Translations under genes and position numbers: made by a program
The notes under the pieces: generated by a model
The model's database searches: none
Told to the model about the DNA's origin: nothing
What the model saw: the letters and a program-made list of their open reading frames with translations, nothing else
From: a plasmid
Strand: one strand, 5' to 3'
Sequence record: NZ_CP118109.1
Length of the DNA stretch: 64,000 bases
Part shown: in pieces, positions 2,389 through 62,690 of the stretch
Position numbering within the stretch: the stretch's first letter is position 1
Layout: each line of letters opens with the position of its first letter

Positions 2389-3066
2389 ATGGATTTGAAT
2401 GCATTGATCAATCAGCAGTTAGTAAATCTACAGGAAGAAGGATATATTGAAACTGTCGTAAAGGAGCAGCTAAAAAGCACAATTAAATCGGTTATCGAAA
2501 ACTCCCTGCGCTCCTACAGTAATTTTGGCAAGGAATTAGAAAAACAAGTAGAAGAATCGCTTAATGTTAATCTTAAGTCTCTCGACGTGCCATCATATAA
2601 TCATGTCGTTCTCAATATGATCAAACAGGAGATTGATCGTTCTATCCATGAAGTTGGTTCTGCTAAATTAAAGGAGCAGCTTGAAGACATGCTTGGAACC
2701 GGCAAGAATGAGTATAAGCTATCCGAATTGATTCAAGAAATGGTTGAATTTGAAATGGAACTTGGAGAGCTTGAATATGATGAAGTTGCTGAGATTTCAG
2801 TTCATGTAAAAGAGACCGGCGCAGGGCTTACTTGGATCTATTTAGATCCCAATCCAGATAAGGAAGCATACGAATGCAAGTACCGAATATATCTGGATGA
2901 TAATGTTGTAACTAGCGCTATGCTTGGTGAGAAGAGTTTTGATAATAGCGTTATTCTAGGTGGTCTTTACGGTCTTGAAGAAACGATCTTCAAAATGTTT
3001 ATTCACGGTTCCAGACTCATCATTGATGAGTATACGACAGAGTTCTCAAATCCCTCTTTCGATTAA
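2389..3066 (+). CDS. hypothetical protein
   Basis: RBS aatgaggtg; 225 aa ORF. Confidence 0.55.
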   Translation: MDLNALINQQLVNLQEEGYIETVVKEQLKSTIKSVIENSLRSYSNFGKELEKQVEESLNVNLKSLDVPSYNHVVLNMIKQEIDRSIHEVGSAKLKEQLEDMLGTGKNEYKLSELIQEMVEFEMELGELEYDEVAEISVHVKETGAGLTWIYLDPNPDKEAYECKYRIYLDDNVVTSAMLGEKSFDNSVILGGLYGLEETIFKMFIHGSRLIIDEYTTEFSNPSFD

Positions 3067-3079
3067 AGGAGTTTTTTCG

Positions 3080-3427
3080 TTGTACGACAAAGTAGATTGC
3101 CCATATTGTGGCAGAAAAAACGATATGCGTGATGCTCTTACTGAAGGGCTGTCTGATGACAACACTACCGATTGGGAGTGCGAGCATTGCGGACAAGAGT
3201 TCACGGTTCATGTTGACTTTATTCCAACTTTCACTGCGTCTAAAATTATCATTGTAGAATGTGATCTCTGCAAATTTGAAACTAGCGACATTAAGAATAA
3301 GGATAATGTCTGGCCTTTCCCCGAAGCATTATTAAAACTGGGAAAGAACTTTTGCCATTCTTGTTGGCTTAAATACATGGGTAAGGAGATGGATACTAAA
3401 TATGGAACTAACAGAGACTCAACGTAA
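3080..3427 (+). CDS. Zn-ribbon protein
   Basis: TTG start 8 nt after aaaggag; CPYCG...CEHCG; track ORF 2960..3427 is over-extended upstream. Confidence 0.5.
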   Translation: MYDKVDCPYCGRKNDMRDALTEGLSDDNTTDWECEHCGQEFTVHVDFIPTFTASKIIIVECDLCKFETSDIKNKDNVWPFPEALLKLGKNFCHSCWLKYMGKEMDTKYGTNRDST

Positions 3428-3644
3428 TCAAATGAAACATGCTCTTGGGTTGAATTATCATGAACATGAAACACGGAATTATTTCTTTACTCGTGCGAAC
3501 AACGCAGACTGGAACGATCTTGTTGATAAAGGCTATGCCAATAAGCGTCCAGGTTGGGATGATGAAGATGCTTATTTCTCAGTGACTGATGAAGGGCGCA
3601 AAGCGCTCGGATTGCCTGAGAAAAGAACAGAGGATGCTCAATAA
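3402..3644 (+). CDS. hypothetical protein
   Basis: ORF with RBS ggtaaggag. Confidence 0.45.
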   Translation: MELTETQRNQMKHALGLNYHEHETRNYFFTRANNADWNDLVDKGYANKRPGWDDEDAYFSVTDEGRKALGLPEKRTEDAQ

Positions 3645-3720
3645 AAAGGAGTTTATATGAAAACATTACATCCTCACATATGATCCCCTTACGCTTGTAA
3701 GGATTGCTCTCGAAAGTCAT

Positions 3721-4215
3721 GTGGAGAACAATATACAAGGGAAATTCTATAAGGCTAAGCAATTTGCCTGCTATGATTTTTTGAACAAAATGGATGACCA
3801 AACTTTGGAAGTCATATTGCTGAAATTTATGGAGAACGAAGGTTTAGAGGTCATCACATTAGAGAATTGGAAAAAAGATGCGCGCTTAATATTCGATGTA
3901 ATTTTCCAAAGAGAAGATTATAAGAATTTAGAAATTAATTTTAAAAAAAGAGGATATGGTTCAACCGGTTTAGGTGTTTACGATAAGCAGGCCAATAAGT
4001 TTTATGACTGCACATGGACAAATCACTTTCCAACTATAATGACGATAGTTGAATCTGAATACCCTGATAAATTCCCTGCCTTGCGTGAATTTTACGCAAT
4101 GCCAAGTATTGACCAACATGAGAATTATACAAGGGAAGAAATTGAACGATTTGTTATGGAAAACTTCGAACTCATCGGACAAACAAAACAACTAGATGAT
4201 TATTTAAAGGATTGA
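3721..4215 (+). CDS. hypothetical protein
   Basis: 164 aa ORF; start uncertain (no clear RBS). Confidence 0.45.
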   Translation: MENNIQGKFYKAKQFACYDFLNKMDDQTLEVILLKFMENEGLEVITLENWKKDARLIFDVIFQREDYKNLEINFKKRGYGSTGLGVYDKQANKFYDCTWTNHFPTIMTIVESEYPDKFPALREFYAMPSIDQHENYTREEIERFVMENFELIGQTKQLDDYLKD

Positions 4216-4417: not shown

Positions 4418-4675
4418 ATGAGCCAAGAGGGGCAAGTGATTAAACATTTAGTTGAACAAATGAAGGCACTTAATGCAGATAATGCACACACGCAGCTTCA
4501 AAACATTGAACAGACTCAAGGACTGACTGTTGTTATATCTATTTATGACAATTTAAAGCCGGCACACGAAGTATTGGATGAATTATATGAATGGGCGGAA
4601 GAAAACAACGAAGAAGTAAAGGAACTCATTGAGCAACTGGAGCAAGATATGAGTTGGAACGCTGAGACGGATTGA
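4418..4675 (+). CDS. hypothetical acidic protein
   Basis: RBS gaggagcga; 85 aa. Confidence 0.5.
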   Translation: MSQEGQVIKHLVEQMKALNADNAHTQLQNIEQTQGLTVVISIYDNLKPAHEVLDELYEWAEENNEEVKELIEQLEQDMSWNAETD

Positions 4676-4711
4676 GGCCATCAGTCTCTTTCCCTGGGAG
4701 GGGAGAACACA

Positions 4712-4876
4712 TTGAAGAATTTTGACATATACGAGTATTTAGCTGACTTTGTTAGTGATGGGAAATCAAAAGACGGAGATGAAATTCTTATAAACATTGA
4801 TGGTCGGAAGATATGTGTAGTTACTCCTCAATTTAAGGAAGAAGAAATCAGTTTCAAGATTGTAAAACGGTATTAG
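4712..4876 (+). CDS. small hypothetical protein (TTG start)
   Basis: strong RBS gggaggggagaa; 54 codons; below track cutoff. Confidence 0.3.
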   Translation: MKNFDIYEYLADFVSDGKSKDGDEILINIDGRKICVVTPQFKEEEISFKIVKRY

Positions 4877-4999
4877 GGAGGGGAGAACAACAGATGATTA
4901 AAAATCAGCGAGTTGTAGTTGAGTACTTAACCAATACCGGACATGACTTTTTTAATAAAGAAACAAAGGAAAAACGAAAGTATGGTGGAAAGGTAGACT

Positions 5000-5332
5000 A
5001 TGAGTAAACAAGAGCACCTTATATCAGCAGATAAGCTGAAGGAATGGTTTTTAAATAATGACAAAGCTGAACCTTTTATGGAATCTGAGTATTCTGGTGA
5101 TGCATTCGTAGACCTTTGCGCAGCAATTGATTCAGGATTGCTCAATCCTGATCCAGTACCCACCATTAAGCCGGGAGATAAGGTGCGATACCACGGATGG
5201 CAATACAATCTATCTAATGTTGCAACAGTAGATCATTTGATAGAGAGAAATGGCACATATGCAACCATAATACATGACGAAGCACCTTATATTGTTCCAC
5301 TTGAACATTTGGAGGTAGTAAAGGATGAATGA
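5000..5332 (+). CDS. hypothetical protein
   Basis: ORF track; RBS ggtggaaaggtag. Confidence 0.5.
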   Translation: MSKQEHLISADKLKEWFLNNDKAEPFMESEYSGDAFVDLCAAIDSGLLNPDPVPTIKPGDKVRYHGWQYNLSNVATVDHLIERNGTYATIIHDEAPYIVPLEHLEVVKDE

Positions 5333-5552
5333 AGAAGTAGAAACAATCGGTGATTACCTTGAGCGAATGATTACAGAAGGTTACATTGACAAAGACTGTC
5401 GCCCGATAAAGTGTCACATCTGTGAAAGCACTGATATAGAAGGACGTAATTATATGTACGAAGATTTCGCGCTTATCATTGAATATGAAATGTTCTGCAA
5501 GCCTTGCAATGTATCAATTGGGCGATGGTCTTATGGAAACTGGGAGGCGTAA
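5325..5552 (+). CDS. hypothetical Cys-containing protein
   Basis: ORF track, overlapping start. Confidence 0.45.
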   Translation: MNEEVETIGDYLERMITEGYIDKDCRPIKCHICESTDIEGRNYMYEDFALIIEYEMFCKPCNVSIGRWSYGNWEA

Positions 5553-5555
5553 AAA

Positions 5556-5792
5556 TTGAGTAAAGAGAAAAAACTCTTATATAGGGTATATGGTCAAAGC
5601 AATAACACTACAGCAAAGGTGTCAGTTGATAAAGAGATGACACTTGAAGAATGCAAAAGCGCTGCTGCTAATGAAGTCTTTAAAACCACATATCACCAAT
5701 TAGACAAACTTGTTGCTCTGCCAATTGGAACTAAAGATGATTATGATCGAGGAATTATTCTTTTCTGTCCAAGGTGCGGGGGAACCTGTTGA
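5556..5792 (+). CDS. hypothetical protein
   Basis: ORF track. Confidence 0.45.
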   Translation: MSKEKKLLYRVYGQSNNTTAKVSVDKEMTLEECKSAAANEVFKTTYHQLDKLVALPIGTKDDYDRGIILFCPRCGGTC

Positions 5793-5860
5793 GGATATGG
5801 GTGCTTCGGAAGCGAATTTTGATTGCTACCAATGTGATGCCAGTATTTATGTAGATATAA

Positions 5861-16674: not shown

Positions 16675-16702
16675 TTGATTTTAGCTTGTAACGTGTTATA
16701 AT
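16675..16702 (+). promoter_or_regulatory. sigma-A-type promoter TTGATT-16-TATAAT
   Basis: consensus-like hexamers; palindrome motif lies just downstream. Confidence 0.5.
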
Positions 16703-16705
16703 TCA

Positions 16706-16722
16706 AAATGTAATGCGTTACA
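16706..16722. promoter_or_regulatory. copy of recurrent palindrome AAATGTAATGCGTTACA
   Basis: direct read; embedded in a larger inverted repeat cttgtaacg...cgttacaag. Confidence 0.6.
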
Positions 16723-16750
16723 AGCTCATGCTAATAGGGGGCTAATAACG

Positions 16751-16969
16751 ATGACAGCAATGACAGTTGAAGATATGTATGCAATGAAACCAGTAGGCAG
16801 TGTGATTCCTTTCTTTAATTTCACCGGATATAAATCAGGTGATTCTGTGCAGGTGGCTGACGGCGCTTATGACTACGACAACAAGGTGTATGTCGTAGAA
16901 GGAAGCCGAATACAGCATATCTGGCATAATGAAGAGAATCAAATGGCATTTGAATTTGAAGGGATTTGA
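16751..16969 (+). CDS. hypothetical protein
   Basis: RBS aggggggct. Confidence 0.5.
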   Translation: MTAMTVEDMYAMKPVGSVIPFFNFTGYKSGDSVQVADGAYDYDNKVYVVEGSRIQHIWHNEENQMAFEFEGI

Positions 16970-16974
16970 AGTAC

Positions 16975-17208
16975 ATGAACTTCGACGTTCAGCGTTCAAT
17001 ATTTGCAACAAATGCATTCGCTTCAGAATTTCCGGAACAGCATACTCAGCTCTGGAAAGAGTTTGAAGAAAAGGTTCCACAGGTAAATCGGATTGGCTAT
17101 TATGGCGCAGATAATGTGGCTTATATAGGCTGGCTCCGTAGCACGAAGAATGCACTCTTTAATTCATTTTTGCAATCCAATATTGCAACAAAGCATTTTG
17201 ATGCATGA
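16975..17208 (+). CDS. hypothetical protein
   Basis: ATG with gaaggga RBS; track start 16966 is alternative. Confidence 0.45.
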   Translation: MNFDVQRSIFATNAFASEFPEQHTQLWKEFEEKVPQVNRIGYYGADNVAYIGWLRSTKNALFNSFLQSNIATKHFDA

Positions 17209-18790
17209 TATAAGAATGTGGTGGCGGAAGAGAGACGCTTAGGTCTAAGGCAGATACGACTCGGTGAGCCCCGGCGCAATTCTCAGAGAGGCGGACTAGA
17301 AACCGCGCTGTAGAAACGTAGAGCCGGATTAGGGCCGTGGGAACCTGTAAGGGGAAGTCAGTTAGGCTGCTACCCGTGATGATGAAATGCTGCTATGCAA
17401 GGGAGAATGGCCCTTGCCCACATTCTTGCTCTCATTCAGCGCACAAGAGTACTGTCCCCCCGGTCTTGAGGACAGCGGCTTGCAACTGAAACCGGTAAAG
17501 GAGCCGACCTTGTGCGTTGAATGAGGGTCTTTTATTCACCCTTTTTTTCCCCTCATCTAAGAACTATAAAGGGTAGGTTATCTGATTTAGCCGTAGGAAG
17601 TCTGGAGTTATTCGTTAGTAGGTTTGTAGGCGCTGCAGAGCCGATCACTGAGGACGGTAGCCTGGATGGACTATTCAAAAATCAGACGACAGTATGCAAA
17701 AACTGACGTTACACAACAGCCAGGACCGAACCTGCAAAAAAGGCGATGAAGAGAGGCAAAAGATGGGCCCTCCGCGACAACCTAGGGGTGTGATGAGGGT
17801 TGTCATGATCATACTGGATGTGAGTCTGCCATGATAGCTTAATTGGGAAAGCGCATGACTGAGAATCATGAGATGCGGTTCAATTCCGATGTGGTGGCAT
17901 TCTAGTATGATTCACTTATGTAGGCGCACTGATGATCTTGTCCGGTTCCGCAAGCCACGCTGATGCGGGTAGACTGGTCTTGTATCGAATCTGAGAGAGT
18001 AAATAGTGGATTAGAAACGGGCGGCTTAAATGACCGGCAACGCGTGGCTTGCCGGCATCATAAGCTGGAGTGTTTCGGCTCCGTTTGCATCCCTTGCTTT
18101 GCGACAGCAGTTAGTCACACGAAACGCAGAACCCTTAGTGACTTTCAGTGCGCTACATAGATTTGTCCGGAATAGCTTAACGGTAGAGCGCTCGTATAAA
18201 CCCATACGAGAGATCAGAGGTTCGATTCCCGTTTCCGGCTTCTGCATTTAGCATACAAGTAAAGACCGTAGATCAGCCAGAGACCTCTGTATTATTTACT
18301 TGAAAAGGTGCGTTGTGTACGAAACTTTTCAAGTAAACAATATAGGCAAGTAGCGAAAGCTATTATAAGTCCAATTGTTTTCTGGTGCATGGATGCTTAA
18401 ATGGGATCAGGTGCAACAAGTGCCAATGGCAGGGTAGAAGACTCGAATCGGTTGCTTTAAGTTTCCGTTTATCGGATCGGATGGATGCTTGAACAGTAAT
18501 GTTCTTGATCGTGAAAAACACCTTTCATCCTATATGCTTAAAGACCTGCAGCTTGTATGTTAAATGGAGAAAGTTTGTGGGGCGGATTAAGTCTCAATGG
18601 ATTGGACGAGGGCGAAGCTTACTATTAATTTCAGGTAGGATCTTCAGGCATCGAGCAGTTGGGTGTCTGAAGACTATCTTTAAATCCTATATGCCGAAAG
18701 GCCAAGGCTTAATGACCCTAACGAAAACTTTCCGAGACTCACAGGTGATCTGCAGTCGGGTAAGCGGTAAAGACCGGCGTACATAATATA
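17209..18790 (+). ncRNA. about 1.6 kb ORF-free, GC-elevated, structure-rich region: candidate large non-coding RNA(s) with tRNA-like fragments
   Basis: only short both-strand overlapping ORFs without RBS; many GC hairpins; internal intrinsic terminator at 17523; tRNA-like D-arm TAGCTTAACGGTAGAGCG and GGTTCGATTCC T-loop near 18170-18245. Confidence 0.5.
17523..17551 (+). terminator. intrinsic terminator inside the non-coding region (likely 3' end of a roughly 330-nt RNA)
   Basis: gggtg-cttttattc-caccc followed by TTTTTTT, nested in atgaggg/ccctcat stem. Confidence 0.55.
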
Positions 18791-18803
18791 AAGGAGGCTT
18801 CCT

Positions 18804-19109
18804 ATGAATATCCCTGAAATTAGGCTCCGTAATGGAAAATTAGCTACATATAAATCATCCAGGCAAACGCGGATTCCTGATATGGGTATTAACGAATTAA
18901 CGGAAGTCCATAGTTTTCGTATCCCTTGCCCAGTATGTGATTACAATGAAGATAATATTGCCGTTTCACAAGACGGCATTGTCTTTCTAAATAGCCAGAT
19001 TGTCTGCCGGTTCTGTGGAGTATTTTTCCGTCCGGTAATAGATCCTGCATTCATAAAAGAGCAGCGGCTTGTCCGCTCGACTATATCCCAAAATGAAGCC
19101 GCCAAATAA
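18804..19109 (+). CDS. Zn-ribbon protein
   Basis: strong RBS aaaggaggc; CPVCD...CRFCG. Confidence 0.55.
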   Translation: MNIPEIRLRNGKLATYKSSRQTRIPDMGINELTEVHSFRIPCPVCDYNEDNIAVSQDGIVFLNSQIVCRFCGVFFRPVIDPAFIKEQRLVRSTISQNEAAK

Positions 19110-19374: not shown

Positions 19375-19436
19375 CTTGCCATTTTTGCAAAAAAGTTTTA
19401 TTCTAACTGTTGAGAATTGTCGAGGGGAGAATAGAA

Positions 19437-20270
19437 ATGATTAATAATATTGATGCCAGTGACTTAGACTCTCTCATAAGTCAGCTAAAAAACACTTTTT
19501 CATTTGGTGACTGGGATAAGATTATACTTTTAGCTGAAAAACTTATAGAGAAAACTAATGTTATTAATAATATAACGAAGATGACTGGTGTTAATTTTAA
19601 TCAAGCAGAGAGAAGCCTGGTTTATTATTATGGCTTCGCATATATGGCTATTGGATCAGCTTACGAACATAAGTGTGATTTCTCTAGGGCCAGAGAATGG
19701 GCTCTTAAATATAGGGACTGGTCTTCTGTTTCATCGCCAACTTCTGAGGATATCAGATGGATGAATCATTGGACTAAATTGTCTGAAATTAATGTGATTG
19801 TTGTCGATCTCCTTATGGGAAAAAATGAAGCTCTTGATCAAATTGCTGATTATATATTGGAGCATCCTGAAGATGCCCTAGCCGGATTAATCACAATGCT
19901 CGATGCTGCAAACAAAAATGATATAAATATTGATCATGTCCTTGCTCGTATTCCAGATGATTTCTGGCAGAACGATAAAAGCACAGGTGTTGTCAACATG
20001 TCTTATCAGTATAGATTTTTTCGCCAACTATCCCTTTACAAACAAAAATGTAATGAGTTACATTTTTGTTTAGAAAATCTCTTGCGCGCTTTATCATTAG
20101 CTGATAAAATGAAAAACGTAGATGACTTTAAGGAATGTATTCAAGTTTTTGAATCTCTTAAAGATCACGCCGACAAGCGTCAAGAGAAAAAATATAACCG
20201 GATAGTAAAGGGAGCGATTAGGCATGAAAAAGTTGTTTCTATCAGCATTGCTAACATTAGGGATTCTTAG
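19437..20270 (+). CDS. alpha-helical TPR-like receptor candidate (RRNPP/Rap-like)
   Basis: RBS gaggggagaatagaa; helical repeats such as YYYGFAYMAIGSAYEH...AREWALKY; 3' end overlaps a secreted pre-peptide gene. Confidence 0.5.
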   Translation: MINNIDASDLDSLISQLKNTFSFGDWDKIILLAEKLIEKTNVINNITKMTGVNFNQAERSLVYYYGFAYMAIGSAYEHKCDFSRAREWALKYRDWSSVSSPTSEDIRWMNHWTKLSEINVIVVDLLMGKNEALDQIADYILEHPEDALAGLITMLDAANKNDINIDHVLARIPDDFWQNDKSTGVVNMSYQYRFFRQLSLYKQKCNELHFCLENLLRALSLADKMKNVDDFKECIQVFESLKDHADKRQEKKYNRIVKGAIRHEKVVSISIANIRDS

Positions 20271-20376
20271 CGTAACAGCAGGCGCTGTGAGCGCATCGGA
20301 CGTAACTAAGCCTGTGGTTGTATCTAACCAAGAGGATGCAGTTATTACTACTATGACCTTTGGTTGGGGTTCTTAA
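20224..20376 (+). CDS. secreted pre-peptide (signal peptide plus short pro-region), Phr/PapR-like
   Basis: RBS agggagcg 7 nt before ATG; MKKLFLSALLTLGILSVTAGAVSA signal then SDVTKPVVVSNQEDAVITTMTFGWGS; overlaps the receptor gene out of frame. Confidence 0.5.
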   Translation: MKKLFLSALLTLGILSVTAGAVSASDVTKPVVVSNQEDAVITTMTFGWGS

Positions 20377-20400
20377 TTCAAACCACATATTCTATATAAA

Positions 20401-20437
20401 AAGAGCTGATCGTTTATTGTTCGGCTCTTTTTTATTT
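20401..20437 (+). terminator. rho-independent terminator
   Basis: aagagc-N17-gctctt then ttttattt. Confidence 0.55.
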
Positions 20438-20474
20438 CATATTGGAATGCATTACATATAAGGAGGTTTTGTAG

Positions 20475-20702
20475 TTGAGTGATAAGAGATACATCCTATT
20501 TACAAGAGAAGGTAGTAGTGAGGTTCGTGCAGACGATACCCAGAAGCGTTATTTCGATCCGCCAGGAAGAGATCATATTATTTTTGGATTTGATAATCAG
20601 AAAGCTATGGCTAGAAAGGCTAATGAACTCCTACGAGATGGTTGCACATTGCTTACCCGCGGAGGAAGAGAGCAGCTGAGGATTTTTAAATCCTATATAT
20701 AA
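20475..20702 (+). CDS. hypothetical protein (TTG start)
   Basis: RBS taaggaggt; half-site of the palindrome motif upstream (ggaatgcattacat). Confidence 0.45.
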   Translation: MSDKRYILFTREGSSEVRADDTQKRYFDPPGRDHIIFGFDNQKAMARKANELLRDGCTLLTRGGREQLRIFKSYI

Positions 20703-21648: not shown

Positions 21649-21740
21649 CCATATTTTACGTGTTACTATGAAAATATTAGTAACATTAGTTCAAAATACC
21701 TGCTATAATGAAAAGCGGAAAATTAAGAGGAGGAAGAAAG

Positions 21741-22517
21741 ATGGAAGACTTTAGTGCTATTTTATTGTTTGTTTCACTCATTGCTATGGTCGCATTTTTA
21801 GTTTTATCAGTGGTTTCTAAGATTAAGAAAGATGGCAAAGCTAAGCGGAAGCTAATGTATGCGGGTGGATCTTTCGTCGTAATGATCGCATCTTTTATTA
21901 TGTTTGGTAGCGTGACTTCTGGCACGACTACAACCGCTGATCCTGCTCCTGCTGTTGAGCAACCAAAGGCTGAAACAGTAAAGCTTTCACCTGAAGAAGA
22001 AGCGGCCATAAAGGAAGAAGCAGAGGCAGCTGCGAAGGCTAAAGCAGAGGAAGAGGCTAAAGCGAAAGCTGAAGCTGAGGAAAAGGCAAAGGCTGAAGCA
22101 GAAGCTAAAGCAAAGGAAGAAGCTGAAGCAAAGGCTAAAGCAGAAGCGGAAGCTAAGGCTGCAGCTGAGGCGGCGGCTCAAGCAGAGGCTGATAAGAAAG
22201 CAAATGCTCAAACAATTGAATATCCGCATCTTTCAAAGAATCCTGACCGTTACGCAGGGGAGTATGTTACATACACCGGCGAAATTGTTCAAATATTAGA
22301 GAGCGGCGAGTTTACTAATATCAGACTTGCTGTAACTCAGGATGAATGGGGATATAACTACAACGACCTCATCTTCATTGAATACGAGGGATTAACTGAC
22401 TTTGTTGATGGTGATGTTGTAACGGTCTATGGTGAGATCTACGGGGCTTATTCGTACACATCACAGGCAGGTTGGGAGATCACCCTGCCTGGTCTAGTAG
22501 CTGACACTGTAGAATAA
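21741..22517 (+). CDS. membrane-anchored protein with long E/A/K-repeat helix and C-terminal globular domain
   Basis: RBS aagaggaggaagaaag; N-terminal TM; EAKAKAEAEAKAKEEAEAKAKAEAEAKAAAEAAAQAEA. Confidence 0.55.
   Translation: MEDFSAILLFVSLIAMVAFLVLSVVSKIKKDGKAKRKLMYAGGSFVVMIASFIMFGSVTSGTTTTADPAPAVEQPKAETVKLSPEEEAAIKEEAEAAAKAKAEEEAKAKAEAEEKAKAEAEAKAKEEAEAKAKAEAEAKAAAEAAAQAEADKKANAQTIEYPHLSKNPDRYAGEYVTYTGEIVQILESGEFTNIRLAVTQDEWGYNYNDLIFIEYEGLTDFVDGDVVTVYGEIYGAYSYTSQAGWEITLPGLVADTVE
22015..22200 (+). repeat. tandem 9-12 bp GCTGAAGCA/GAAGCTAAA-type repeats encoding the EAKA tract
   Basis: direct read. Confidence 0.7.
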
Positions 22518-22599: not shown

Positions 22600-22691
22600 T
22601 AAAAATGCATCAAAATACTGACAGGTATTATCATGGTGAGGGCCGCCTTTGTGCGGCTTTTCCCATGTATATCATCATATGGGGGATTCCT

Positions 22692-23738
22692 ATGTCAAAT
22701 AAGGTATATAATGACTCATTGTATAACGAGGATGTGAAATTAAAGTTCCTAGAGTTAATGAAAAAGAATGGTTGTTCTGAAAATACATTAGTTACATATA
22801 AGCGAGTTTTTCTACGCGCATCTGGATTAGAAAAAAGATTTAAGACGGATCTGTATGATTTTACATTCGAATATATAGAAAAACTCTTAATCAAGATGAA
22901 TCATACAACATTAAACTCCGCAATAAGCAGCATTAGCATCATAAGAAGTTACATTGATTGGGCGATACAGAACAAGTACAGAAAGGTGCCTTTAAGCCCA
23001 CTGGACGTATTCACTACGAAGGAATTGGCCCAGCGATACAAGAACAAACGAGTAAGAGTATATTTTACACATGCTGAAGTGCAAAAGTTTGCAGATAGCG
23101 CTGTGAATGCGCAGGATAAGGCTCTCATTTGGGCAATGTTTCATGGTATATGTGGAAATGGGATGGCAGAACTAAGGAATCTTACGTTGTATGATATTGA
23201 TCAGCATAACTATAAATTGACTCTTAAGGACGATGATTCAGAGAGAGTTATTGAACTCATCTCAGATGAACAAAAAAAATTGATCGACCACCTTCTTAAA
23301 GCCCATGAGCAAACTCATTATCTAAAGGGAAACGGAAAGTCTGTTGCTAAAAACCCTATCGGTTTCTTAGCAAAAAATAACCATGTATTTAGGCCTATGA
23401 TTCGTGGAGACAGTTCTACTGCTTCTTATCATGTTTTAAGAAATAGACTTGTAGATATATCAAAAATCAACGAAGAGCCGCAACTAACTTCCCCTATTTC
23501 GTTAAGATATAGTGGGATGCTTTATATGGCTTATTGTGAATATCAAAAGCATGGGGCGTTGAGTCTTGAGTCCATAAAGAGAATTTCAGATTTCTATGCT
23601 ATCAGTAAAGTAACTGATTCCAAATATGACAACTTCTTTATTCGAAGAGAATTTTTAACCGAAGAAACGATCATAAAGGAATATCTCTCTGGAGACGAAG
23701 GAGAAGAAGACTATGGAGTTGATGCAAAGATATTTTGA
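22692..23738 (+). CDS. tyrosine-recombinase/integrase-like protein (tentative)
   Basis: N-terminal SAM-like segment TLNSAISSISIIRSYIDWAI; C-terminal SYHVLRNRLV (HxLR-like) and downstream Tyr; motifs weak. Confidence 0.4.
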   Translation: MSNKVYNDSLYNEDVKLKFLELMKKNGCSENTLVTYKRVFLRASGLEKRFKTDLYDFTFEYIEKLLIKMNHTTLNSAISSISIIRSYIDWAIQNKYRKVPLSPLDVFTTKELAQRYKNKRVRVYFTHAEVQKFADSAVNAQDKALIWAMFHGICGNGMAELRNLTLYDIDQHNYKLTLKDDDSERVIELISDEQKKLIDHLLKAHEQTHYLKGNGKSVAKNPIGFLAKNNHVFRPMIRGDSSTASYHVLRNRLVDISKINEEPQLTSPISLRYSGMLYMAYCEYQKHGALSLESIKRISDFYAISKVTDSKYDNFFIRREFLTEETIIKEYLSGDEGEEDYGVDAKIF

Positions 23739-25048: not shown

Positions 25049-26092
25049 TTAACGAAGCAATTGAAGAACTGCTTGTGGTTGTTGGTTTGCTTGAGCCAAC
25101 ATTGCTTGAGCTGCTTGGGAAAGAATCGAGTTCTTAGTTTGCTCAACCATTTCTTTCGCCATGTCAACGTCACGAATACGGGATTCAGATGCTGTCAGGT
25201 TCTCTGCTGTTGTACCCAGGTTATTTACTGTGTGCTCCAAACGGTTTTGTACGGAACCCAATTTAGAACGCTCAGCAGATACGCTCTCGATCGCTGCGTT
25301 AATTGTAGTGATTGCTGTATCAGCGTCTTCTTGGTTAGAAATGTTGATACCAGCGTTTACTTTTGCTTCATCAGCATATGCTTCGTCAACTTTGACAACC
25401 ATTTTGTCGCCATCGTAGTAACCAGCTACAACAACATCATCTTCGGTTGCCTTTCTAGTTGTACCATTACCACTGCCATCGTCAATGTCGTCTCCGACAT
25501 TAACTGCTTCTTTAAAAGTAAGTGTAGTTGTTCCGGCAGTCAAAGTTGCAGTAGTGCCATCGTTATCAGATGTGTACTCTGTGCTTACTTTCAGCGCTTC
25601 AGCGCCCATGTCACTAATTGAAAGACTAATGCTTTGACCTGCATTTGCTCCGATTTGGAATGTAACATTTTCAGCAGAACCATTGATCAGCTTTTTCGTA
25701 TTGAACTCAGTGTCTGTAGAGATACGAGTCAATTCTTCAGCTAATTGGTTTACTTCTTTTTGAAGCTCTGCGCGGTCGGAATCCGTGTTTGTGTCAGATG
25801 CTGATTGAACTGCCAGCTCACGCATACGTTGCAGGATAGAATGAGATTCATTCAATGCACCTTCAGCTGTCTGGATCAGTGAGATACCATCTTGAGCGTT
25901 ACGAGAAGCTTGCTCAAGACCGCGGATTTGTCCACGCATTTTTTCGGAGATTGCAAGACCCGCTGCGTCATCACCAGCACGGTTGATGCGAAGACCGGAA
26001 GACAATTTCTCCATGTTTTTTCCTTGTGCAGAGTTAGCTGCGCCCAGGCTGCGTTGAGTGTTAATCGCCGCAATGTTGTGATTGATAATCAT
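25049..26092 (-). CDS. hag: flagellin
   Basis: N-terminal [17 protein letters not shown]...[30 protein letters not shown] and C-terminal flagellin helices; RBS GGAGG. Confidence 0.9.
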
Positions 26093-26150: not shown

Positions 26151-26348
26151 TTAGAGCGGCAGTCCATTTTGTCTGCAGAGCTCTTTTTGTTCGTCTGACA
26201 AGATCTCTTCCCTGAGTATCTTAACGTCATTCGGAGCAGTTATTTCTAACTTTGGATTGCCGTAATCATCGACCTTCACTTTAATATGTATGGAATTGCC
26301 GATAATGATCGACTCACCCGCTCTTCTGTTGACTGTTAATTTTCCCAT
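26151..26348 (-). CDS. csrA: carbon storage regulator CsrA
   Basis: MGKLTVNRRAGESIIIGNSIHIKVKVDDYGNPKLEITAPNDVKILREEI; track ORF over-extended upstream. Confidence 0.75.
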   Translation of the reverse strand: MGKLTVNRRAGESIIIGNSIHIKVKVDDYGNPKLEITAPNDVKILREEILSDEQKELCRQNGLPL

Positions 26349-26382
26349 GCCGACTACCAACTTCCCTATTGTGATAGTTATT

Positions 26383-26409
26383 TTATCGGCGGGATCCGGA
26401 AATAGTTTA
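26383..26409 (-). promoter_or_regulatory. sigma-D (sigma-28) type promoter TAAA-N15-GCCGATAA driving csrA-hag
   Basis: minus-strand tggtaTAAActatttccggatcccGCCGATAAaa, close to B. subtilis sigma-D consensus TAAA-N15-GCCGATAT. Confidence 0.6.
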
Positions 26410-26445
26410 TACCATTTTAAAAAAATTTTATTGGAGCTGATAAAT

Positions 26446-26790
26446 ATGAAATATAACCCTACTCTACTCAACGTTTTTAATCTTAATAAATTTGATCCTC
26501 GTGAGTTAACGTATAGCGAAAAAATGCTGGTCGAGGAATATCTTGGCGAAATCTTAGAGGAACAATATTCCGGAGACATCCAAGAAATTATCCATTATCA
26601 AGATAAACGCATTACATTTAGCGAGGATTCTGAAGGCTTCAAACTGCCCCTAGCAAACGATCTACCACTTGAATATAACCTATGGAATATAAATAGTTTA
26701 TTCGCCTATGGAGAGGCTGATATGGAGCTTGTGGCGGTCTTAGAGAATCCCGAAAATACAATGAATCAGGTGATGGTTAGTATGTATTAA
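26446..26790 (+). CDS. hypothetical protein
   Basis: ATG with ggag 8 nt upstream; track ORF 26290 is over-extended. Confidence 0.5.
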   Translation: MKYNPTLLNVFNLNKFDPRELTYSEKMLVEEYLGEILEEQYSGDIQEIIHYQDKRITFSEDSEGFKLPLANDLPLEYNLWNINSLFAYGEADMELVAVLENPENTMNQVMVSMY

Positions 26791-32862: not shown

Positions 32863-33858
32863 CTATTCACCAAAAACAAATTTAACTTGTGATATAGATT
32901 GGCTCCACTGAGCAATCATGCCGATCGCAGCTGCAACATCTCTGGAAGGCGCATAAGCCACACCATTTTCAACAATCGTATTATCAAGTACGACTTCGTT
33001 TATTGATGCTTTCTTTGTTTTGTTATCAAATCCAACAGACTTACCGGCAACAATAGATACAGCTTTCACCGGAACATATGAAGTGCCTTTGTTAATAAAT
33101 CCAGGTGTTGAGAGAGGTCGAAGAGACCCATTTTCTTTTTCTACTACAACAGTTGCTGGTGGGTATTTAGATGCCTCTTCTTCTTTCTTAGAAGTAGAGA
33201 TACCACCTACTGCCGTATTCTCAATAAATGTAACACCAAGATATTCGCATATAGCTTGGGCTACTTCTTTACCGGTTTCGCGTCGGTAGTTATCATCAAT
33301 GAGCAACTTTGCTTCTTCGAGGTTATCCATGAAGCCGCATTCGATTAGGACGGAAGCCATATGCTCGTGAGTCTCACGAAGAACTTGATAGCTGTTCGAT
33401 TTAACGCCACGACTGGATTGTTTCGTTCCCATCAACAGATGCTTTTGCATGATATTTGCAAGCTTGATGCTGTCAGATCCAGCGCCTGTTTGATAATAAG
33501 TCTCTACCCCTTTAGCGCTATTCCATTTGCCATTATTAGCATTAGCATGAACGCTTACGAATACATCTGCTTTAGCATTGCGTGCAATCCAAGAACGTGT
33601 AGCCAGCGGAACATCGCCATCACCTGCAGCTGACTCAATAACTTTGATACCACAGCGCTCCAGATGATCCTTTGCATACTTCACAACAGCGCGATTAAAT
33701 TCGTTCTCATGCATGAAGTTGCCCGTTTCGCTCTTCATCCCGCTTCCTGCAGGGAAGATCGGTGTGCGCTTGCCAATTGTCTGCATACCGTGGCCATCAT
33801 CTAGGACAACCACATATTGTTTCAAGGCAGCTGCAATAAATTCGCTTTTGCTCAACAT
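32863..33858 (-). CDS. N-acetylmuramoyl-L-alanine amidase (Amidase_3-type) with C-terminal binding domain
   Basis: VVLDDGHG...ADVFVSVHANA amidase motifs; RBS ggagtgagg. Confidence 0.8.
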   Translation of the reverse strand: MLSKSEFIAAALKQYVVVLDDGHGMQTIGKRTPIFPAGSGMKSETGNFMHENEFNRAVVKYAKDHLERCGIKVIESAAGDGDVPLATRSWIARNAKADVFVSVHANANNGKWNSAKGVETYYQTGAGSDSIKLANIMQKHLLMGTKQSSRGVKSNSYQVLRETHEHMASVLIECGFMDNLEEAKLLIDDNYRRETGKEVAQAICEYLGVTFIENTAVGGISTSKKEEEASKYPPATVVVEKENGSLRPLSTPGFINKGTSYVPVKAVSIVAGKSVGFDNKTKKASINEVVLDNTIVENGVAYAPSRDVAAAIGMIAQWSQSISQVKFVFGE

Positions 33859-34755: not shown

Positions 34756-37700
34756 TTAGCTAAATTCCACCTGGAACTGATTCATTATTTCCTCTTCCGA
34801 TTGTTCGGCATGATCCATGTACGTAATTTTATCTACGATGAGATCTGAACCGCTTCGTTTGCCGACGACTTTAATCTTGCGTCCGATAATGAAGTCATCT
34901 GCATTCTTGCTCCATATCTTATTGAAGATGACTAGACTCAATTCATCCTCTGCCGTCTCTATCTTCGCCTTACCTGTTACCTTGCCGCTACTCTTGGCTG
35001 TGAAAGGCTTAGACTCTATAATGTAGCCGGTGAACGTGATATTCTCTCTGCCATCTTCAATGCTATCCCACCGAGAACGAATGCTTACATTTGTGCCGAG
35101 CATTTCACGCTCATAGGCGATAATGTCCTTCTTCGTTGTTTTGGATGGCATATGTTCAAACTCTTCGCCGCGGTATTCGAAATATCTGCGCAATAAGAGA
35201 TTGCGGTTGTCGGATATTGTATCGAAACTTCCGGACTTAATGAGATTGGATGTTTTTGTTTTATTGAGTTTCATTGTTCTATTGGCCAATAAGAAATCAT
35301 CAAATTCTTTGAATGGTCGGCATTCCGTAATGACATCAAGATCTTTGCTGCTGACTCCTGCGATACTTGCAAGGCCATACAAAATCTTACCAAGACCTTC
35401 TTCGCCCTCTTGAGCATTGATTGGTGTCCAGCTGTCGTTAGAGTAGTTGATATCTGGTGGCAGGATGCTGATTCCCATTTCTTCGCATTCTTTCATGTAT
35501 GCAACGTTACGGGGAACACCATCTTTCAGCTTGCCCTCTGAGATTGTCATGAGCGCAGCCATAAACTCTGTTGGATAGTAAGCCTTCAGATAAGCTGTCA
35601 TAACAGAGAGTACTGCGTAGCAAGCGCTATGCGCATAGTTGAAGCAGTAGTCACCGAACTTGATCCAGTCTTCTTTGATTTTAAGAAGTGTTGCCTCGTC
35701 ATATCCAAGGGAAATAGCTCCTGGAATGTTAAGTGGCTCTTTGCCTTTAGCGATTAGCTCAGCATCTTTTTCAGCGCTGCCATAGATCATGTAGTTGATC
35801 CATTCTTCCATTAGTGCGTGATTCTTTTTCGAGATGGCTTTACGCAGGATATCAGATTGACCGGTAGTGAATCCTCCAAGAATCATGGAAGCTTTCATGA
35901 TCTGCTCTTGGTAGACCCAAATACCATAGGTCTTTCCAAGAACCGGCTCTAAGCTATCGAACGGATAAGTAACTCTCTCTTGTCCTTTCTTTCTTCGGAT
36001 ATAAGAGGGAATAAGGTCGAGTGGTCCTGGTCTGCCTAACGCTACGATAACGGAAATATCCTCTACATTTGAAGGCTCCATGTCTTTGATGATTCCGCGG
36101 AATAGATCAGACTCGCACTGGAAGATTCCTGAGAGATTCAGCTTATTATAAATTTCTTCATAAATCTTCGGATCATTAAAGTTAATTGTATTCAGATCAA
36201 GCTCCATAATCCCTGCATTCTGCTTCGTCTTCTTGATCAGGTCGAGGGTAGACAGCTTAAGAATGTCGAATTTAACTAGGAACTTTTCGATCCACTCCAT
36301 ATCGTATTGAGTTGTCGTAAGTCCTTCCTTATCCAGTCGAAGAGGTACGGTGTTCGTAAGCGGCTTAGGTGAAAGAACGATGCCTCCAGCATGCACTCCT
36401 GCACTTCTGACGTGCCCCTCAAGTGCTTTGGCAGCTTGCCACCATTCAGGATATCTATCTGCATACATCCGAGTTTCAGGTGATATCTGATAAGCACCAT
36501 CCACTTCTTTTCCGTTTTTATTAATATACTTGTCTAATGTAATGCCTGGCGTTTCGGGAATAGACTTCGCAAACCGGTCTTGATCCTGCGCACCGTATCC
36601 AAGTGCCTTACCAACTGCACGAATAACCGATCTACCTGCAAGAGTTCCATAGGTGCCAATCTGAGCTACGTTAAGATCACCGTATTTCTGCTTCATGTAT
36701 TCCTGTACAGCTCTAGCGCCTTCATAGGAGAAGTCTACGTCGATATCTGGATAGCCTGCGCGTTCTGGATTCAGGAAGCGCTCAAACATTAGATCCCATT
36801 TAATCGGATCGATCGTTGTAATGCCAATAACGAAAGCAACGAGTGAACCGGCAGCGGATCCCCTTCCAGGTCCTACTTCGAATCCATTTTCCTTCGCCCA
36901 GTTAATATAGTCAGATACAATCAGAAAGTAATCAGCAAATCCAAGTGGATTAATAACACTCAGCTCATATTGAAGCTGTTGACTGTATTGCTCCAGATCA
37001 ATCGGCGTCTTTAATGCGTAGGTGAACAGCCGGTTCCATGCCAGCTTCTCTAGCTGCTCTTCCGCTGTATCATTCTCATCAACAATGTATTTAGGGAACA
37101 AAGGATCTTTGGGCAAGTCTACATCGACCAACTCTGCAATTCTGAGCGTATTTTCAATGGCTTCATCATCGTTAATAATCTCACGAATCTCATCCTCTGA
37201 TTTCATCCAGAACTCATGAGCGTATACCAAGCGATCATTATCATGAATACATTTATTCATACTGGATGCAACTAGAATATCGTGGATGTCACGGTCGTCT
37301 TTATTGGCATAGTGAACATCTGTTGTTACGATTTTCGGCGTGTTTGTTTCCAGAGCCAGCTGGTCAATGATTTCATTAAGCCTGATTTGCTCTGGGATGC
37401 GCGTTGCCTGCTTCTCCAAATAAAATGAGTGAAACGTCTCTTTGCACTCCTGTATGAATGAGCGACACTCTGCCAGATCACCAGCAAGGGCAAAGCGAGC
37501 AAGGTAACTACCAAGACAAGCAGAGGTAGCAATAATGTGCTTGCCAAGACCACGATCACGAATAAAGGCAAGATCGGTACGAGGATTACTATAAAAACCG
37601 CTGATATGAGCATCTGAAATAATTTCATATAAGTCCTCCAATCCTTGTTGGTTAGTGGCCATCAGGACAATATGAAAGTTATCATGCTTGATTAGTTCAT

Positions 37701-38211
37701 AGAACTCTTTCCGGAAGTCTTCAAGCGCATCGTCTGGCGAAAACCCTACAACGAGTGGTTTCTCTTCTTCCATCATGCCGAAACCAAACAAGTCTAATTC
37801 TTCTTCTGATCCACTAGCCATAGACTTAAGATCTTCACGCATGATGTAGTCCTTTAGCAGCTCCCGAGCTTCAAGCATAAAGTTATCAGGATTGTTTCTC
37901 ACTGCTTTCCGAAATGCCTTCCAAGCCTTGTCCTTGATGCCGTATTTCTCTAAAAAAATAGCTTTTGAAGCTTTATGGAAATCACTTTTAAGGTGGCGAT
38001 TCTTCGTCATATAAGCTTCGCAGCCTGGGATCGGTTTGATCCCTTCCTCTTTGCATGCCGTTATAAAATCGGGAATAGCCCCGCAAACGCCGTGATCCGT
38101 AATGGCGAGCGCGGAGCTACCGATTTCCTTTGCACGCTTGACGAGGTCTTTTACGGTAGAAAGACCATCAAGCTCTGAGTATTCACAGTGTACATGTAAA
38201 TGATTGATCAT
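34756..38211 (-). CDS. dnaE: DNA polymerase III alpha subunit (DnaE-type, N-terminal PHP domain)
   Basis: PHP HVHCEYSELDG...ITDHG; GFEVGPGRGSAAGSLVAFVIGIT; RBS aaggagag. Confidence 0.9.
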   Translation of the reverse strand: MINHLHVHCEYSELDGLSTVKDLVKRAKEIGSSALAITDHGVCGAIPDFITACKEEGIKPIPGCEAYMTKNRHLKSDFHKASKAIFLEKYGIKDKAWKAFRKAVRNNPDNFMLEARELLKDYIMREDLKSMASGSEEELDLFGFGMMEEEKPLVVGFSPDDALEDFRKEFYELIKHDNFHIVLMATNQQGLEDLYEIISDAHISGFYSNPRTDLAFIRDRGLGKHIIATSACLGSYLARFALAGDLAECRSFIQECKETFHSFYLEKQATRIPEQIRLNEIIDQLALETNTPKIVTTDVHYANKDDRDIHDILVASSMNKCIHDNDRLVYAHEFWMKSEDEIREIINDDEAIENTLRIAELVDVDLPKDPLFPKYIVDENDTAEEQLEKLAWNRLFTYALKTPIDLEQYSQQLQYELSVINPLGFADYFLIVSDYINWAKENGFEVGPGRGSAAGSLVAFVIGITTIDPIKWDLMFERFLNPERAGYPDIDVDFSYEGARAVQEYMKQKYGDLNVAQIGTYGTLAGRSVIRAVGKALGYGAQDQDRFAKSIPETPGITLDKYINKNGKEVDGAYQISPETRMYADRYPEWWQAAKALEGHVRSAGVHAGGIVLSPKPLTNTVPLRLDKEGLTTTQYDMEWIEKFLVKFDILKLSTLDLIKKTKQNAGIMELDLNTINFNDPKIYEEIYNKLNLSGIFQCESDLFRGIIKDMEPSNVEDISVIVALGRPGPLDLIPSYIRRKKGQERVTYPFDSLEPVLGKTYGIWVYQEQIMKASMILGGFTTGQSDILRKAISKKNHALMEEWINYMIYGSAEKDAELIAKGKEPLNIPGAISLGYDEATLLKIKEDWIKFGDYCFNYAHSACYAVLSVMTAYLKAYYPTEFMAALMTISEGKLKDGVPRNVAYMKECEEMGISILPPDINYSNDSWTPINAQEGEEGLGKILYGLASIAGVSSKDLDVITECRPFKEFDDFLLANRTMKLNKTKTSNLIKSGSFDTISDNRNLLLRRYFEYRGEEFEHMPSKTTKKDIIAYEREMLGTNVSIRSRWDSIEDGRENITFTGYIIESKPFTAKSSGKVTGKAKIETAEDELSLVIFNKIWSKNADDFIIGRKIKVVGKRSGSDLIVDKITYMDHAEQSEEEIMNQFQVEFS

Positions 38212-47907: not shown

Positions 47908-48133
47908 TCTTCTTTCTCATTTTCTTTTCCCTGTAATAATCCGTTATAAATTGAACGAATAGCTTTTTGACTTTAAACATGATTAATATTGCACTAAACG
48001 TGTGGTCCCAAGCCCAAATCATGAACCATATCAGCAGACCCAAGGTTGTAAGGCCACCAAGGATAAAGGTGGCCCATACATACCAGATCAAGATTTCGCT
48101 TGATGGATCTATCATGAAGCGCAGTTCTCGCAT
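47900..48133 (-). CDS. small membrane protein inserted between nrdE and nrdF
   Basis: overlaps both neighbours; hydrophobic. Confidence 0.3.
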   Translation of the reverse strand: MRELRFMIDPSSEILIWYVWATFILGGLTTLGLLIWFMIWAWDHTFSAILIMFKVKKLFVQFITDYYREKKMRKKSE

Positions 48134-62192: not shown

Positions 62193-62690
62193 CTATTTCT
62201 CTTCCGTATTTTTGGAAGATCGATTAGATTTATTTTCAATCTCAGATTGAACAAAGTTAATGATGCTGTTTGGAATCCACTTCTCCCATCCAGCTCGTAC
62301 AGAGTTAGCCGTTAAGCTGTTGAAGGTGTGGAAGATCAAGCCCGTCGTTACAAAATAGAAGATAACGCCTGGCGTGTTTAATACATAGTCAAGCATGTTG
62401 GCTGCTGCCGGAAAACAAAGTATGAATAAAGTCCTCAGTACGCCATTGATACCATATTCGGAAGAATAACTTCCATCTTTCTTGGAAGCGGCGATCCCAC
62501 TGATCCAGTCCATAAAGATAAAGAATGCATAGATGGCAATCATAAATTTCCGCTCTTCTCCGCCGCCGTATACGGTTTCTACGATCGACCCGAAAACTCC
62601 ACCTATTGTTGCCCATACTGCAGTAGATGAAGAAGCTATATTATCTAAGCTAAGTGTTTTTCCGAGCTCAAAGCGACTCATCGGTTTCAC
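62193..62690 (-). CDS. holin-like membrane protein (LL-H-type family)
   Basis: FIFMDWISGIAASKKDG motif and TM pattern. Confidence 0.5.
   Translation of the reverse strand: MKPMSRFELGKTLSLDNIASSSTAVWATIGGVFGSIVETVYGGGEERKFMIAIYAFFIFMDWISGIAASKKDGSYSSEYGINGVLRTLFILCFPAAANMLDYVLNTPGVIFYFVTTGLIFHTFNSLTANSVRAGWEKWIPNSIINFVQSEIENKSNRSSKNTEEK

Follow-up and report, generated by a model that had tools for sequence, protein, structure and literature searches.

Organization of the receptor-peptide cassette

The window analysed here is a 64,000-nucleotide stretch of a plasmid (sequence record NZ_CP118109.1), which carries at positions 19,437 to 20,376 a cassette of two overlapping genes for a receptor-like protein and a small pre-peptide. 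A first-pass annotation of the sequence had proposed that the two form a peptide quorum-sensing pair of the RRNPP type. The cassette is described below with reference to the Alo systems, which have been defined as RRNPP-like pairs of receptor and peptide in Paenibacillaceae (Voichek et al. 2020, PMC7425212), and in particular to AloR13-AloP13 of Paenibacillus polymyxa ATCC 842. Its features are as follows (TPR, tetratricopeptide repeat; HTH, helix-turn-helix).

19376..19404, plus strand: sigma-70-like promoter match (TTGCCA-17-TATTCT) in the 62-nt gap 5' of the receptor gene, with 9 of 12 consensus positions; tentative
19422..19429, plus strand: Shine-Dalgarno site of the receptor gene, GAGGGGAG, 7 nt before the ATG, read from the sequence
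19437..20270, plus strand: aloR-like receptor gene, 277 aa, TPR-like helices throughout and no HTH, corresponding to AloR13 residues 188-456
20207..20214, plus strand: Shine-Dalgarno site of the peptide gene, AAAGGGAG, within the receptor 3' end and 9 nt before the ATG, kept in relatives
20224..20376, plus strand: aloP-like gene for a 50-aa pro-peptide, which shares its first 47 nt with the receptor gene and lies in the +1 frame relative to that gene
20224..20295, plus strand: codons of a predicted Sec signal peptide, MKKLFLSALLTLGILSVTAGAVSA, with predicted cleavage after V-S-A and a hydropathy of 2.38 over 10 residues
20356..20373, plus strand: codons of the predicted mature signal, the C-terminal hexapeptide TFGWGS, from alignment with AloP13 SHGRGG and relatives; length inferred
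20398..20433, plus strand: intrinsic terminator at the end of the two-gene operon, with the stem GAGCUGA/UCGGCUC and a U6 run behind it

The receptor open reading frame (ORF) runs from the ATG at 19437 to a stop codon ending at 20270. The 278 aa first given for it counts the stop codon, whereas its description as all-helical and TPR-like stands. A TTG further upstream, at 19410, is an improbable start codon because homologs begin at the equivalent Met. The 50-aa ORF lies where it had been placed, out of frame with the receptor and overlapping it, although its ribosome-binding site is 9 nt rather than 7 nt from the ATG. Its product, MKKLFLSALLTLGILSVTAGAVSA followed by 26 residues with the C-terminal end TTMTFGWGS, matches the earlier reading exactly. 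A Sec-type signal peptide is predicted from the hydropathy, an MKK n-region, the hydrophobic core and the V-S-A cleavage motif, and the SAGAVSA/AGAVSA c-region is kept in two related loci (L002 and L005). The 50-aa product contains no Cys and is therefore not a lipoprotein.

The terminator recognized at first pass was substantiated by RNA folding of positions 20377-20445, which gave -18.6 kcal/mol (z = -6.1 against 200 shuffles) and a T-run after the hairpin; a simple scan had overlooked it because the loop exceeds 8 nt. The promoter match is assigned by position only, because shuffled sequence is expected to give just as many matches in the region. The two strands of the window together hold 49 ORFs that are 150 aa or longer. 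Of these, the receptor gene alone was followed by a signal-like small ORF, defined as a 3'-overlapping or adjacent ORF of 30-60 aa that has a Shine-Dalgarno site, two or more K/R among its first five residues and a hydrophobic core.

Homology to Alo receptors and peptides

The receptor was compared with AloR13, whose sequence is given in Supplemental Data 1 of PMC7425212. BLASTP aligned receptor residues 6-272 with AloR13 residues 188-456 at 25% identity over 274 aa (E = 1e-15), and hhalign gave a probability of 99.3% (E = 4e-20). The receptor thus falls within the published definition of an AloR homolog, which is a protein of at least 250 aa with E < 1e-10 (PMC7425212). It also aligned with P0006, an ortholog of AloR7, at 28% identity over 272 aa (E = 4e-37). 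The P0006-type loci of the P. polymyxa group encode a peptide, MKKLISRPLSLSLFSLLVFVTSHDLI(S/T)VFYHGANH, that is identical to the published AloP7 at 34-35 of 35 residues; in Table S1 of PMC7425212, AloP7 is paired with 'Alo7', a receptor of 285 aa. Table S2 of the same paper includes among the AloR homologs a 277-aa protein of Paenibacillus sp. TCA20. In strain and length this entry agrees with P0002, which shares 83% identity with the window receptor, and the two are probably the same protein. When 1.84 billion cluster representatives were searched with a profile, 246 relatives were recovered, 182 of them at E < 1e-10.

Other hallmarks of Alo systems were also found. The receptor has a C-terminal TPR or TPR-like domain, the predicted peptide-binding part, and a short ORF within the 32-50 aa range, with a hydrophobic signal helix, overlaps its end. 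The predicted hexapeptides align position by position with the validated signal (SHGRGG in AloP13, NHGWGV and NFGWGA in relatives, and TFGWGS in the window). Locus searches yielded 21 loci on genome-assembly contigs, every one from Paenibacillus, as expected for the Paenibacillaceae host of Alo systems, and four on IMG/VR contigs. There was no DNA match in the plasmid collection, no match in the metagenome scan, and none in a first genome-contig scan with the close-clade alignment; the alignment of 84 representatives was too diverse for locus search.

In the only experimentally validated Alo system, AloR13 directly activates the promoter of the adjacent spo0E-like gene, and synthetic SHGRGG, the mature AloP13 peptide, shuts off this activation (PMC7425212). 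Mass spectrometry demonstrated the secretion of AloP pro-peptides and the removal of a peptide from their C-terminus (Voichek et al. 2020, PMC7425212). Long AloR genes abound in Paenibacillus genomes, and AloR7 is conserved in 14 of 14 P. polymyxa strains examined (PMC7425212). On the evidence of homology, the cassette is very probably a real receptor-peptide signalling pair of the Alo family. The RRNPP-type pairing suggested by the first-pass annotation is therefore upheld through homology to the validated AloR13-AloP13. Its further view that the receptor is closer to Rap holds for architecture but fails for descent. The family is Alo and not Rap, PlcR or AimR.

Conservation of the pair

Five close relatives of the receptor were found in a search of 5.8 billion proteins. 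An identical receptor is recorded from a Paenibacillus urinalis plasmid of 214,846 bp, P0002 lies on a 206,307-bp contig, two further relatives with 63-64% identity are on assembled contigs up to 210-213 kb, and the most distant, with 43% identity, is on a short contig. All four close relatives with DNA (loci L002-L006) carry an ORF of 48-51 aa that overlaps the receptor 3' end by 47 nt and shows an MKK start and a hydrophobic core. The small ORFs differ in length by 3 and 9 nt, so the reading frame is kept. Their products end in KPLNFGWGA (L002 and L005) or KPLNHGWGV (L006), compared with TTMTFGWGS in the window, and the GWG codons vary at third positions only. A hairpin with a T-run also ends the operon in L002 and L006.

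The ratio of nonsynonymous to synonymous substitution rates (dN/dS, NG86 method) was 0.13 for the receptor between L002 and L005, the other pairs being saturated. For the peptide ORF outside the overlap it was 0.08-0.48. In addition, five clade members (43-83% identity) have an unbroken receptor ORF that begins at the same start. The dN/dS values indicate that both genes are under purifying selection, and the frame-preserving indels together with dN/dS below 0.5 support the earlier treatment of the small ORF as a genuine coding gene.

In the wider family, a signal-peptide ORF follows the receptor in 26 of 31 distinct homologous loci, usually with an overlap of 44-50 nt, and in two of the loci the peptide is fused in frame to the receptor. 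An [H/F]-G pair occurs near the C-terminus of all 14 distinct peptide types (HGANH, HGAEH, HGVGSV, HGIF, FGEHY, FGWGS and others). Homologs devoid of a paired peptide gene, which the first-pass annotation had named as a finding that would speak against it, are thus the minority. Sequence comparison indicates that the pair is conserved and not a chance ORF.

Some loci depart from the common layout. L029, on a 154-kb IMG/VR contig, has a peptide gene (4818-4955) whose C-terminal motif is tandemly duplicated (NNHGANS...YNHGANS). Receptor and peptide of L023 and L027 share one reading frame that no stop codon interrupts, and the receptor of L027 may also be disrupted.

A short receptor architecture without an HTH domain

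Relatives of the receptor fall into two architectures. Short forms of ~255-295 aa match it end to end, whereas long forms of ~440-490 aa match from residue ~190 and carry an N-terminal Xre-type HTH, with Pfam HTH_3 or HTH_26 detected in several. The window receptor begins at the equivalent of AloR13 residue 188 and so lacks the HTH and roughly two TPR-like units. Pfam detected no HTH in it, and a hidden Markov model (HMM) representing residues 1-200 of 38 long forms had no match at E <= 10 in a six-frame translation of the window. A search upstream of the receptor for a hidden or split HTH or an N-terminal remnant found none, and the window contains a single AloR-like ORF and no long form in its 64 kb. 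Pfam, the long-form HMM and the AloR13 alignment thus bear out the earlier remark that no N-terminal HTH is obvious and show the absence to be real. Across the fetched loci, the long-form N-terminal module was confined to genuine long-form genes and one small separate HTH ORF (L029); short-form loci lacked it except L017 and L029, where it belongs to separate genes.

Short forms of 253-293 aa make up 42 of the 84 aligned representatives. In a quick neighbour-joining distance tree of the shared region, which is not a rigorous phylogeny, 38 of these 42, the window receptor and AloR7 among them, fell into one clade. Because the HTH-less forms cluster in one clade, we regard the short form as an established architecture rather than a truncation artefact. 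All Alo receptors were said to have an N-terminal HTH (Voichek et al. 2020, PMC7425212). The window receptor departs from this description, and so does the published AloR7 (285 aa), which was catalogued without remark on the missing HTH (PMC7425212). In a 2022 survey, Rap was given as the sole RRNPPA group without an HTH (Felipe-Ruiz et al. 2022, PMC9765709), and a literature search of incomplete coverage found no paper on HTH-less Alo receptors.

In two loci, a long-form AloR gene with an HTH lies ~2-2.5 kb downstream of the short-form pair (7347-8750 in L017 and 6853-8271 in L029), which hints that short and long Alo forms may sometimes act together.

Predicted fold of the receptor

An AlphaFold2 model built from a five-sequence alignment was confident (pLDDT 86, pTM 0.76) and contained 13 helices. 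Apart from residues 1-3, which were also below 50, confidence was low only for residues 264-277. Conservation of the 264-277 tail may reflect the signal-peptide frame instead of the receptor itself, because the overlap encodes that tail. Y64, Y92, N119 and Y136, near the concave groove, are conserved in the family. The structure check proposed at first pass is thereby answered at the level of prediction: the model confirms a TPR superhelix and not an enzyme. The pLS20 Rap protein was among the fold matches. The matches are generic, however, and the fold alone therefore assigns no family.

Pfam, NCBIfam and PHROGs gave no significant match for either the receptor or the peptide, and a PDB sequence search with the receptor returned nothing specific and no Rap. 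Relatives of the AloR7 type (P0006) and of the long form (P0023) likewise drew nothing specific from these three family collections, which appear to hold no Alo model.

Comparison with characterised and catalogued Alo pairs

The cassette resembles AloR13-AloP13 in its homologous TPR-like region, the immediately downstream gene for a Sec-signal pro-peptide, the aligning hexapeptides and the Paenibacillaceae host. It differs in that AloR13, with 467 aa, has an N-terminal HTH and ~2 extra TPR-like units, and the window receptor lacks those ~187 residues. AloR13 also has a spo0E-like neighbour, whereas the window receptor has none and is encoded on a phage-like plasmid. AloR7-AloP7 of P. polymyxa shares with the cassette the short architecture, the end-to-end alignment of the receptors, the common clade in the distance tree, and the overlap of the peptide gene with the receptor 3' end (44 nt versus 47 nt in the window). 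However, AloR7-AloP7 is a chromosomal pair conserved throughout P. polymyxa, the C-terminal sequence of its peptide is FYHGANH, and the receptors are only 28% identical.

The Brevibacillus phage SecTim467 (Jenstvirus) was the only phage record with a detectable receptor homolog (26% identity, E = 2e-13), so Alo-type receptors do occur in phages of Paenibacillaceae. Unlike the window receptor, the homolog is a long form of 474 aa with the N-terminal module and stands beside a Spo0E-like gene. In that phage (L001), two long AloR-like genes (2461-3840 and 4422-5846) flank the Spo0E-like gene, with no obvious signal-peptide ORF downstream of them. The locus looks like an orphan receptor because the annotated ORF that overlaps the 3' end of the AloR-like gene is not signal-peptide-like, and the SecTim467 genes may be 'eavesdropper' receptors.

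The phage-like replicon and the genes around the cassette

The first-pass annotation had placed the pair in a phage setting, and virion, lysis and replication genes confirm that the replicon is phage-like. The window encodes primases, helicases, DnaN, a PolIII-alpha-like polymerase, a Cas4-type exonuclease, RusA, ribonucleotide reductase and a sigma-factor-like protein, as well as an endolysin, a holin-like protein and a virion structural protein (PHROG E = 1e-104). The main markers are located as follows.

32863-33858, minus strand: endolysin
34756-38211, minus strand: PolIII-alpha-like polymerase
46867-50445, minus strand: class I ribonucleotide reductase subunits
62193-62690, minus strand: holin-like protein
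62698-63936, minus strand: virion structural protein

The polymerase is 38.6% identical to that of Moorella phage MTATph1, and the virion structural protein is related to ORF175 of the Bacillus jumbo phage 0305phi8-36; MTATph1 and 0305phi8-36-like jumbo Bacillus phages are the best phage relatives of these two proteins. The contig of L005 is listed as viral in IMG/VR. Gene content indicates that the replicon is a distant relative of these jumbo phages, and the ~215-kb P. urinalis 'plasmid' is most likely a jumbo phage kept extrachromosomally. The cassette is a stable part of a family of phage-like replicons of about 206-214 kb.

In the Bacillus phage SPbeta, a gene for a repressor of the MrpR/YopR family lies further along the same strand as the arbitrium genes. 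In the window, an MrpR/YopR homolog is encoded 2.2 kb downstream of the cassette on the same strand (22605-23738, plus strand; Pfam MrpR_N_CB E = 2e-23, PDB 8bj6/8a0a E = 1e-27). The protein has a tyrosine-recombinase fold and is a homolog of the SPbeta master repressor. The ~3.5-kb block to which it belongs (20.9-24.2 kb) is missing from L002 and L005, although both have the cassette with its flanks. The MrpR-like gene suggests a temperate lifestyle but is a variable insert. The apparent SPbeta-like synteny (receptor-peptide-...-MrpR versus aimR-aimP-...-yopR) was rejected as evidence, because the block is absent from these two loci and the intervening genes match no known family. The same variable block encodes a 269-aa predicted membrane-anchored protein with Ala/Glu/Lys-rich repeats (21708-22517, plus strand), whose C-terminal domain matches PHROG 26645 (E = 2e-34).

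A conserved partner gene was sought by clustering the ORFs within 3 kb of the receptor in 20 loci. Only the receptor and peptide genes were shared, apart from phage-backbone genes within the close clade and the long AloR gene in two loci. The next gene downstream of the cassette (20475-20702) matched no known family in Pfam, PHROGs or NCBIfam. Just upstream, 18804-19109 (plus strand) encodes a 101-aa protein with a CPVC...CRFC zinc-ribbon motif, which belongs to no known family (a weak YnfU-like match was seen). It is the only neighbour retained in all four close-clade loci, including the most divergent, L006, and could be either a partner or plain phage backbone.

Proposed function and alternative explanations

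We assign a probability of roughly 0.78 to the reading that the cassette is a functional two-gene quorum-sensing operon of the Alo branch of RRNPP systems, with the short, HTH-less, AloR7-like architecture and carried on a ~215-kb jumbo-phage-like plasmid. In the mechanism that we propose, both genes, whose layout is observed, would be co-transcribed up to the terminator, and the 50-aa pre-peptide would be translated from its own Shine-Dalgarno site within the receptor 3' end. Judging by its sequence and by the mass spectrometry of other AloP peptides (PMC7425212), the pre-peptide would be exported by the Sec pathway with loss of a 24-aa signal peptide. The 26-aa pro-peptide would then be trimmed outside the cell to a C-terminal peptide of ~6 aa, TFGWGS, as its alignment with SHGRGG suggests. 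Re-import by the oligopeptide permease is general for RRNPP systems. The window peptide would return by this route, presumably binding the concave face of the TPR superhelix.

A receptor without an HTH cannot use the known Alo mechanism as it stands. Since it has no DNA-binding domain, we suppose that peptide binding would alter its contact with another protein, following a Rap-like logic, instead of DNA binding, and we lean slightly towards an output through protein-protein contact. That the controlled process is the lytic/lysogenic or maintenance state of the element itself is conceivable but doubtful. The Spo0A pathway is a further candidate, by analogy with other Alo and phage Rap systems.

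Several points weigh against a functional Alo operon of this kind. The HTH that explains the output of the known Alo system is missing here, and the only experimentally studied Alo receptor is AloR13, a long form with an HTH; no short form has been studied. No gene other than the peptide gene is conserved beside short-form receptors in 20 loci. The window peptide ends in Ser, compared with Ala or Val in relatives and Gly in AloP13, and its secretion, processing, import and binding are predictions only. A Foldseek search of the receptor model against PDB gave no match at E <= 0.001, and the fold matches were to generic TPR proteins. Finally, P0002 is identified with the Table S2 entry by strain and length alone.

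The first alternative is an arbitrium-like role, in which the cassette senses the density of phage-plasmid carriers and sets the lytic/lysogenic or induction state. In one variant, the HTH-less receptor could act as an anti-repressor that is switched off by the peptide, as the pLS20 Rap acts on Rco, and pLS20 Rap is indeed among the fold matches of the receptor. The cassette is stable in a family of ~206-214-kb phage-like replicons and lies in a regulatory or variable region beside tRNA genes, with the MrpR/YopR-like repressor homolog 2.2 kb downstream on the same strand. Like the AimR-AimP-AimX system of SPbeta-like Bacillus phages, it is a phage-borne pair whose predicted hexapeptide has Gly at position 5. 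Arbitrium hexapeptides end in G-G or G-A; the predicted hexapeptides of the relatives end in GWGA or GWGV and that of the window in GWGS. However, the receptor has neither the N-terminal HTH of AimR nor similarity to it. There is no aimX-like effector or target: transcription is predicted to end at the terminator behind the peptide gene, and no link to a repression module is conserved, since the MrpR-like block is missing from L002 and L005, both of which have the cassette. Moreover, the only characterised Alo system controls a spo0E-like gene. Most of the short-form relatives found lie on Paenibacillus assembly contigs up to chromosome size and not on this phage-like replicon, and the function of the short clade is therefore not phage-specific. 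We consider the arbitrium-like role unlikely, though worth keeping in view.

In the second alternative, the receptor interferes with the host Alo network, either by forming inactive heterodimers with full-length host AloR or by buffering the peptide. A precedent is found in Agrobacterium, where the truncated TrlR forms inactive heterodimers with TraR. The receptor corresponds to the C-terminal 270 aa of a long AloR, comprising the peptide-binding and C-terminal parts, long AloR genes are numerous in Paenibacillus genomes, and in L017 and L029 a short pair stands ~2-2.5 kb upstream of one. However, an identity of ~20-25% to long forms is low for specific heterodimerisation, and there is no long form in the 64-kb window. 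The short clade is also old and has its own co-diverging cognate peptides, which points to a private channel rather than a parasite. Interference with the host network therefore seems improbable.

That the cassette is no signalling pair at all, but a TPR scaffold or chaperone next to an unrelated secreted (e.g., bacteriocin-like) or untranslated small ORF, is very unlikely. Neither protein matches a curated family (Pfam, NCBIfam, PHROGs), and TPR folds serve many functions; against this stand the full-length homology to the validated AloR13 and to AloR7, the pairing with a peptide in 26 of 31 loci, the alignment of the C-terminal motif with the active AloP13 peptide, and the selection on the peptide frame. 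A 5'-truncated pseudogene of a full-length AloR would account for the absence of the first ~187 residues of long forms, but this reading is effectively refuted by the intact and selected ORF (dN/dS 0.13, same start in five clade members of 43-83% identity), the 38 short forms in one clade, the presence of AloR7 in 14 of 14 P. polymyxa strains, and the lack of an N-terminal remnant upstream of the receptor.

True membership in the Rap-Phr or AimR-AimP families is hardly credible. Compared with Rap-Phr systems (those of the B. subtilis chromosome, pLS20 Rap/Rco and phages phi3T and phi105), the receptor shows no sequence-level homology: Pfam and NCBIfam gave no Rap similarity, and the PDB sequence matches did not include a Rap protein. 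Rap proteins have ~375 aa, with an N-terminal three-helix bundle that has the output function and ~seven TPRs, a layout that the receptor does not share, and Phr signals are different pentapeptides. The likeness lies in the absence of a DNA-binding domain and in the downstream, often overlapping phr-type gene, that is, in layout and logic and not in descent. Similarly, PlcR-PapR and NprR-NprX depend on an HTH-TPR factor, whereas the receptor has no such architecture and no PlcR or NprR similarity.

The cassette itself is no discovery, because Alo systems were described in 2020 and a probable ortholog of the receptor is already in Table S2 of that study. What is new relative to the literature consulted is the HTH-less clade, which comprises about half of the closest family representatives, including AloR7, and whose cognate peptides are under selection, together with the residence of an Alo cassette on a jumbo-phage-like plasmid. 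A bolder proposal, which we offer as speculation and think unlikely, is that the AloR7-like clade is a second independent RRNPP lineage that lost the HTH and gained a protein-contact output, used here by a jumbo phage-plasmid to gauge how many cells carry it and to control induction or lysogeny accordingly. If true, this would be quorum sensing by a jumbo phage or phage-plasmid with an output mechanism unlike that of arbitrium, and an independent case of a TPR receptor rewired from DNA binding to protein-protein output. With the cassette, peptide communication could be tested in a very large phage-plasmid whose host is not a Bacillus. Should the receptor prove to be without partner or phenotype, it would merely be one more uncharacterised Alo locus.

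Other features of the window

An ORF-poor region of ~2 kb (16700-18800) lies upstream of the cassette. It contains a tRNA-Leu(GAG) gene (17827-17898, plus strand), found by both ARAGORN and Rfam, and a second tRNA-like sequence (18166-18240, plus strand), found by Rfam only (36.9 bits). The latter is probably a divergent tRNA-Gly, being 84% identical to tRNA-Gly(UCC) of L002 and L005. Besides the tRNAs, no Rfam family was detected in the region. Non-coding blocks are shared with L002 and L005 at 82-84% identity (17412-17644) and ~75% identity (18243-18800), and the region may hold regulatory or non-coding RNA sequence.

Further downstream, a full-length flagellin gene (25049-26092, minus strand; Flagellin_N E = 6e-47, Flagellin_C E = 1e-29) adjoins a gene with a CsrA domain (26151-26579, minus strand). 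A flagellin with a CsrA-type regulator is unusual on a jumbo-phage-like replicon. In L006, a CsrA gene lies ~1.3 kb downstream of the cassette.

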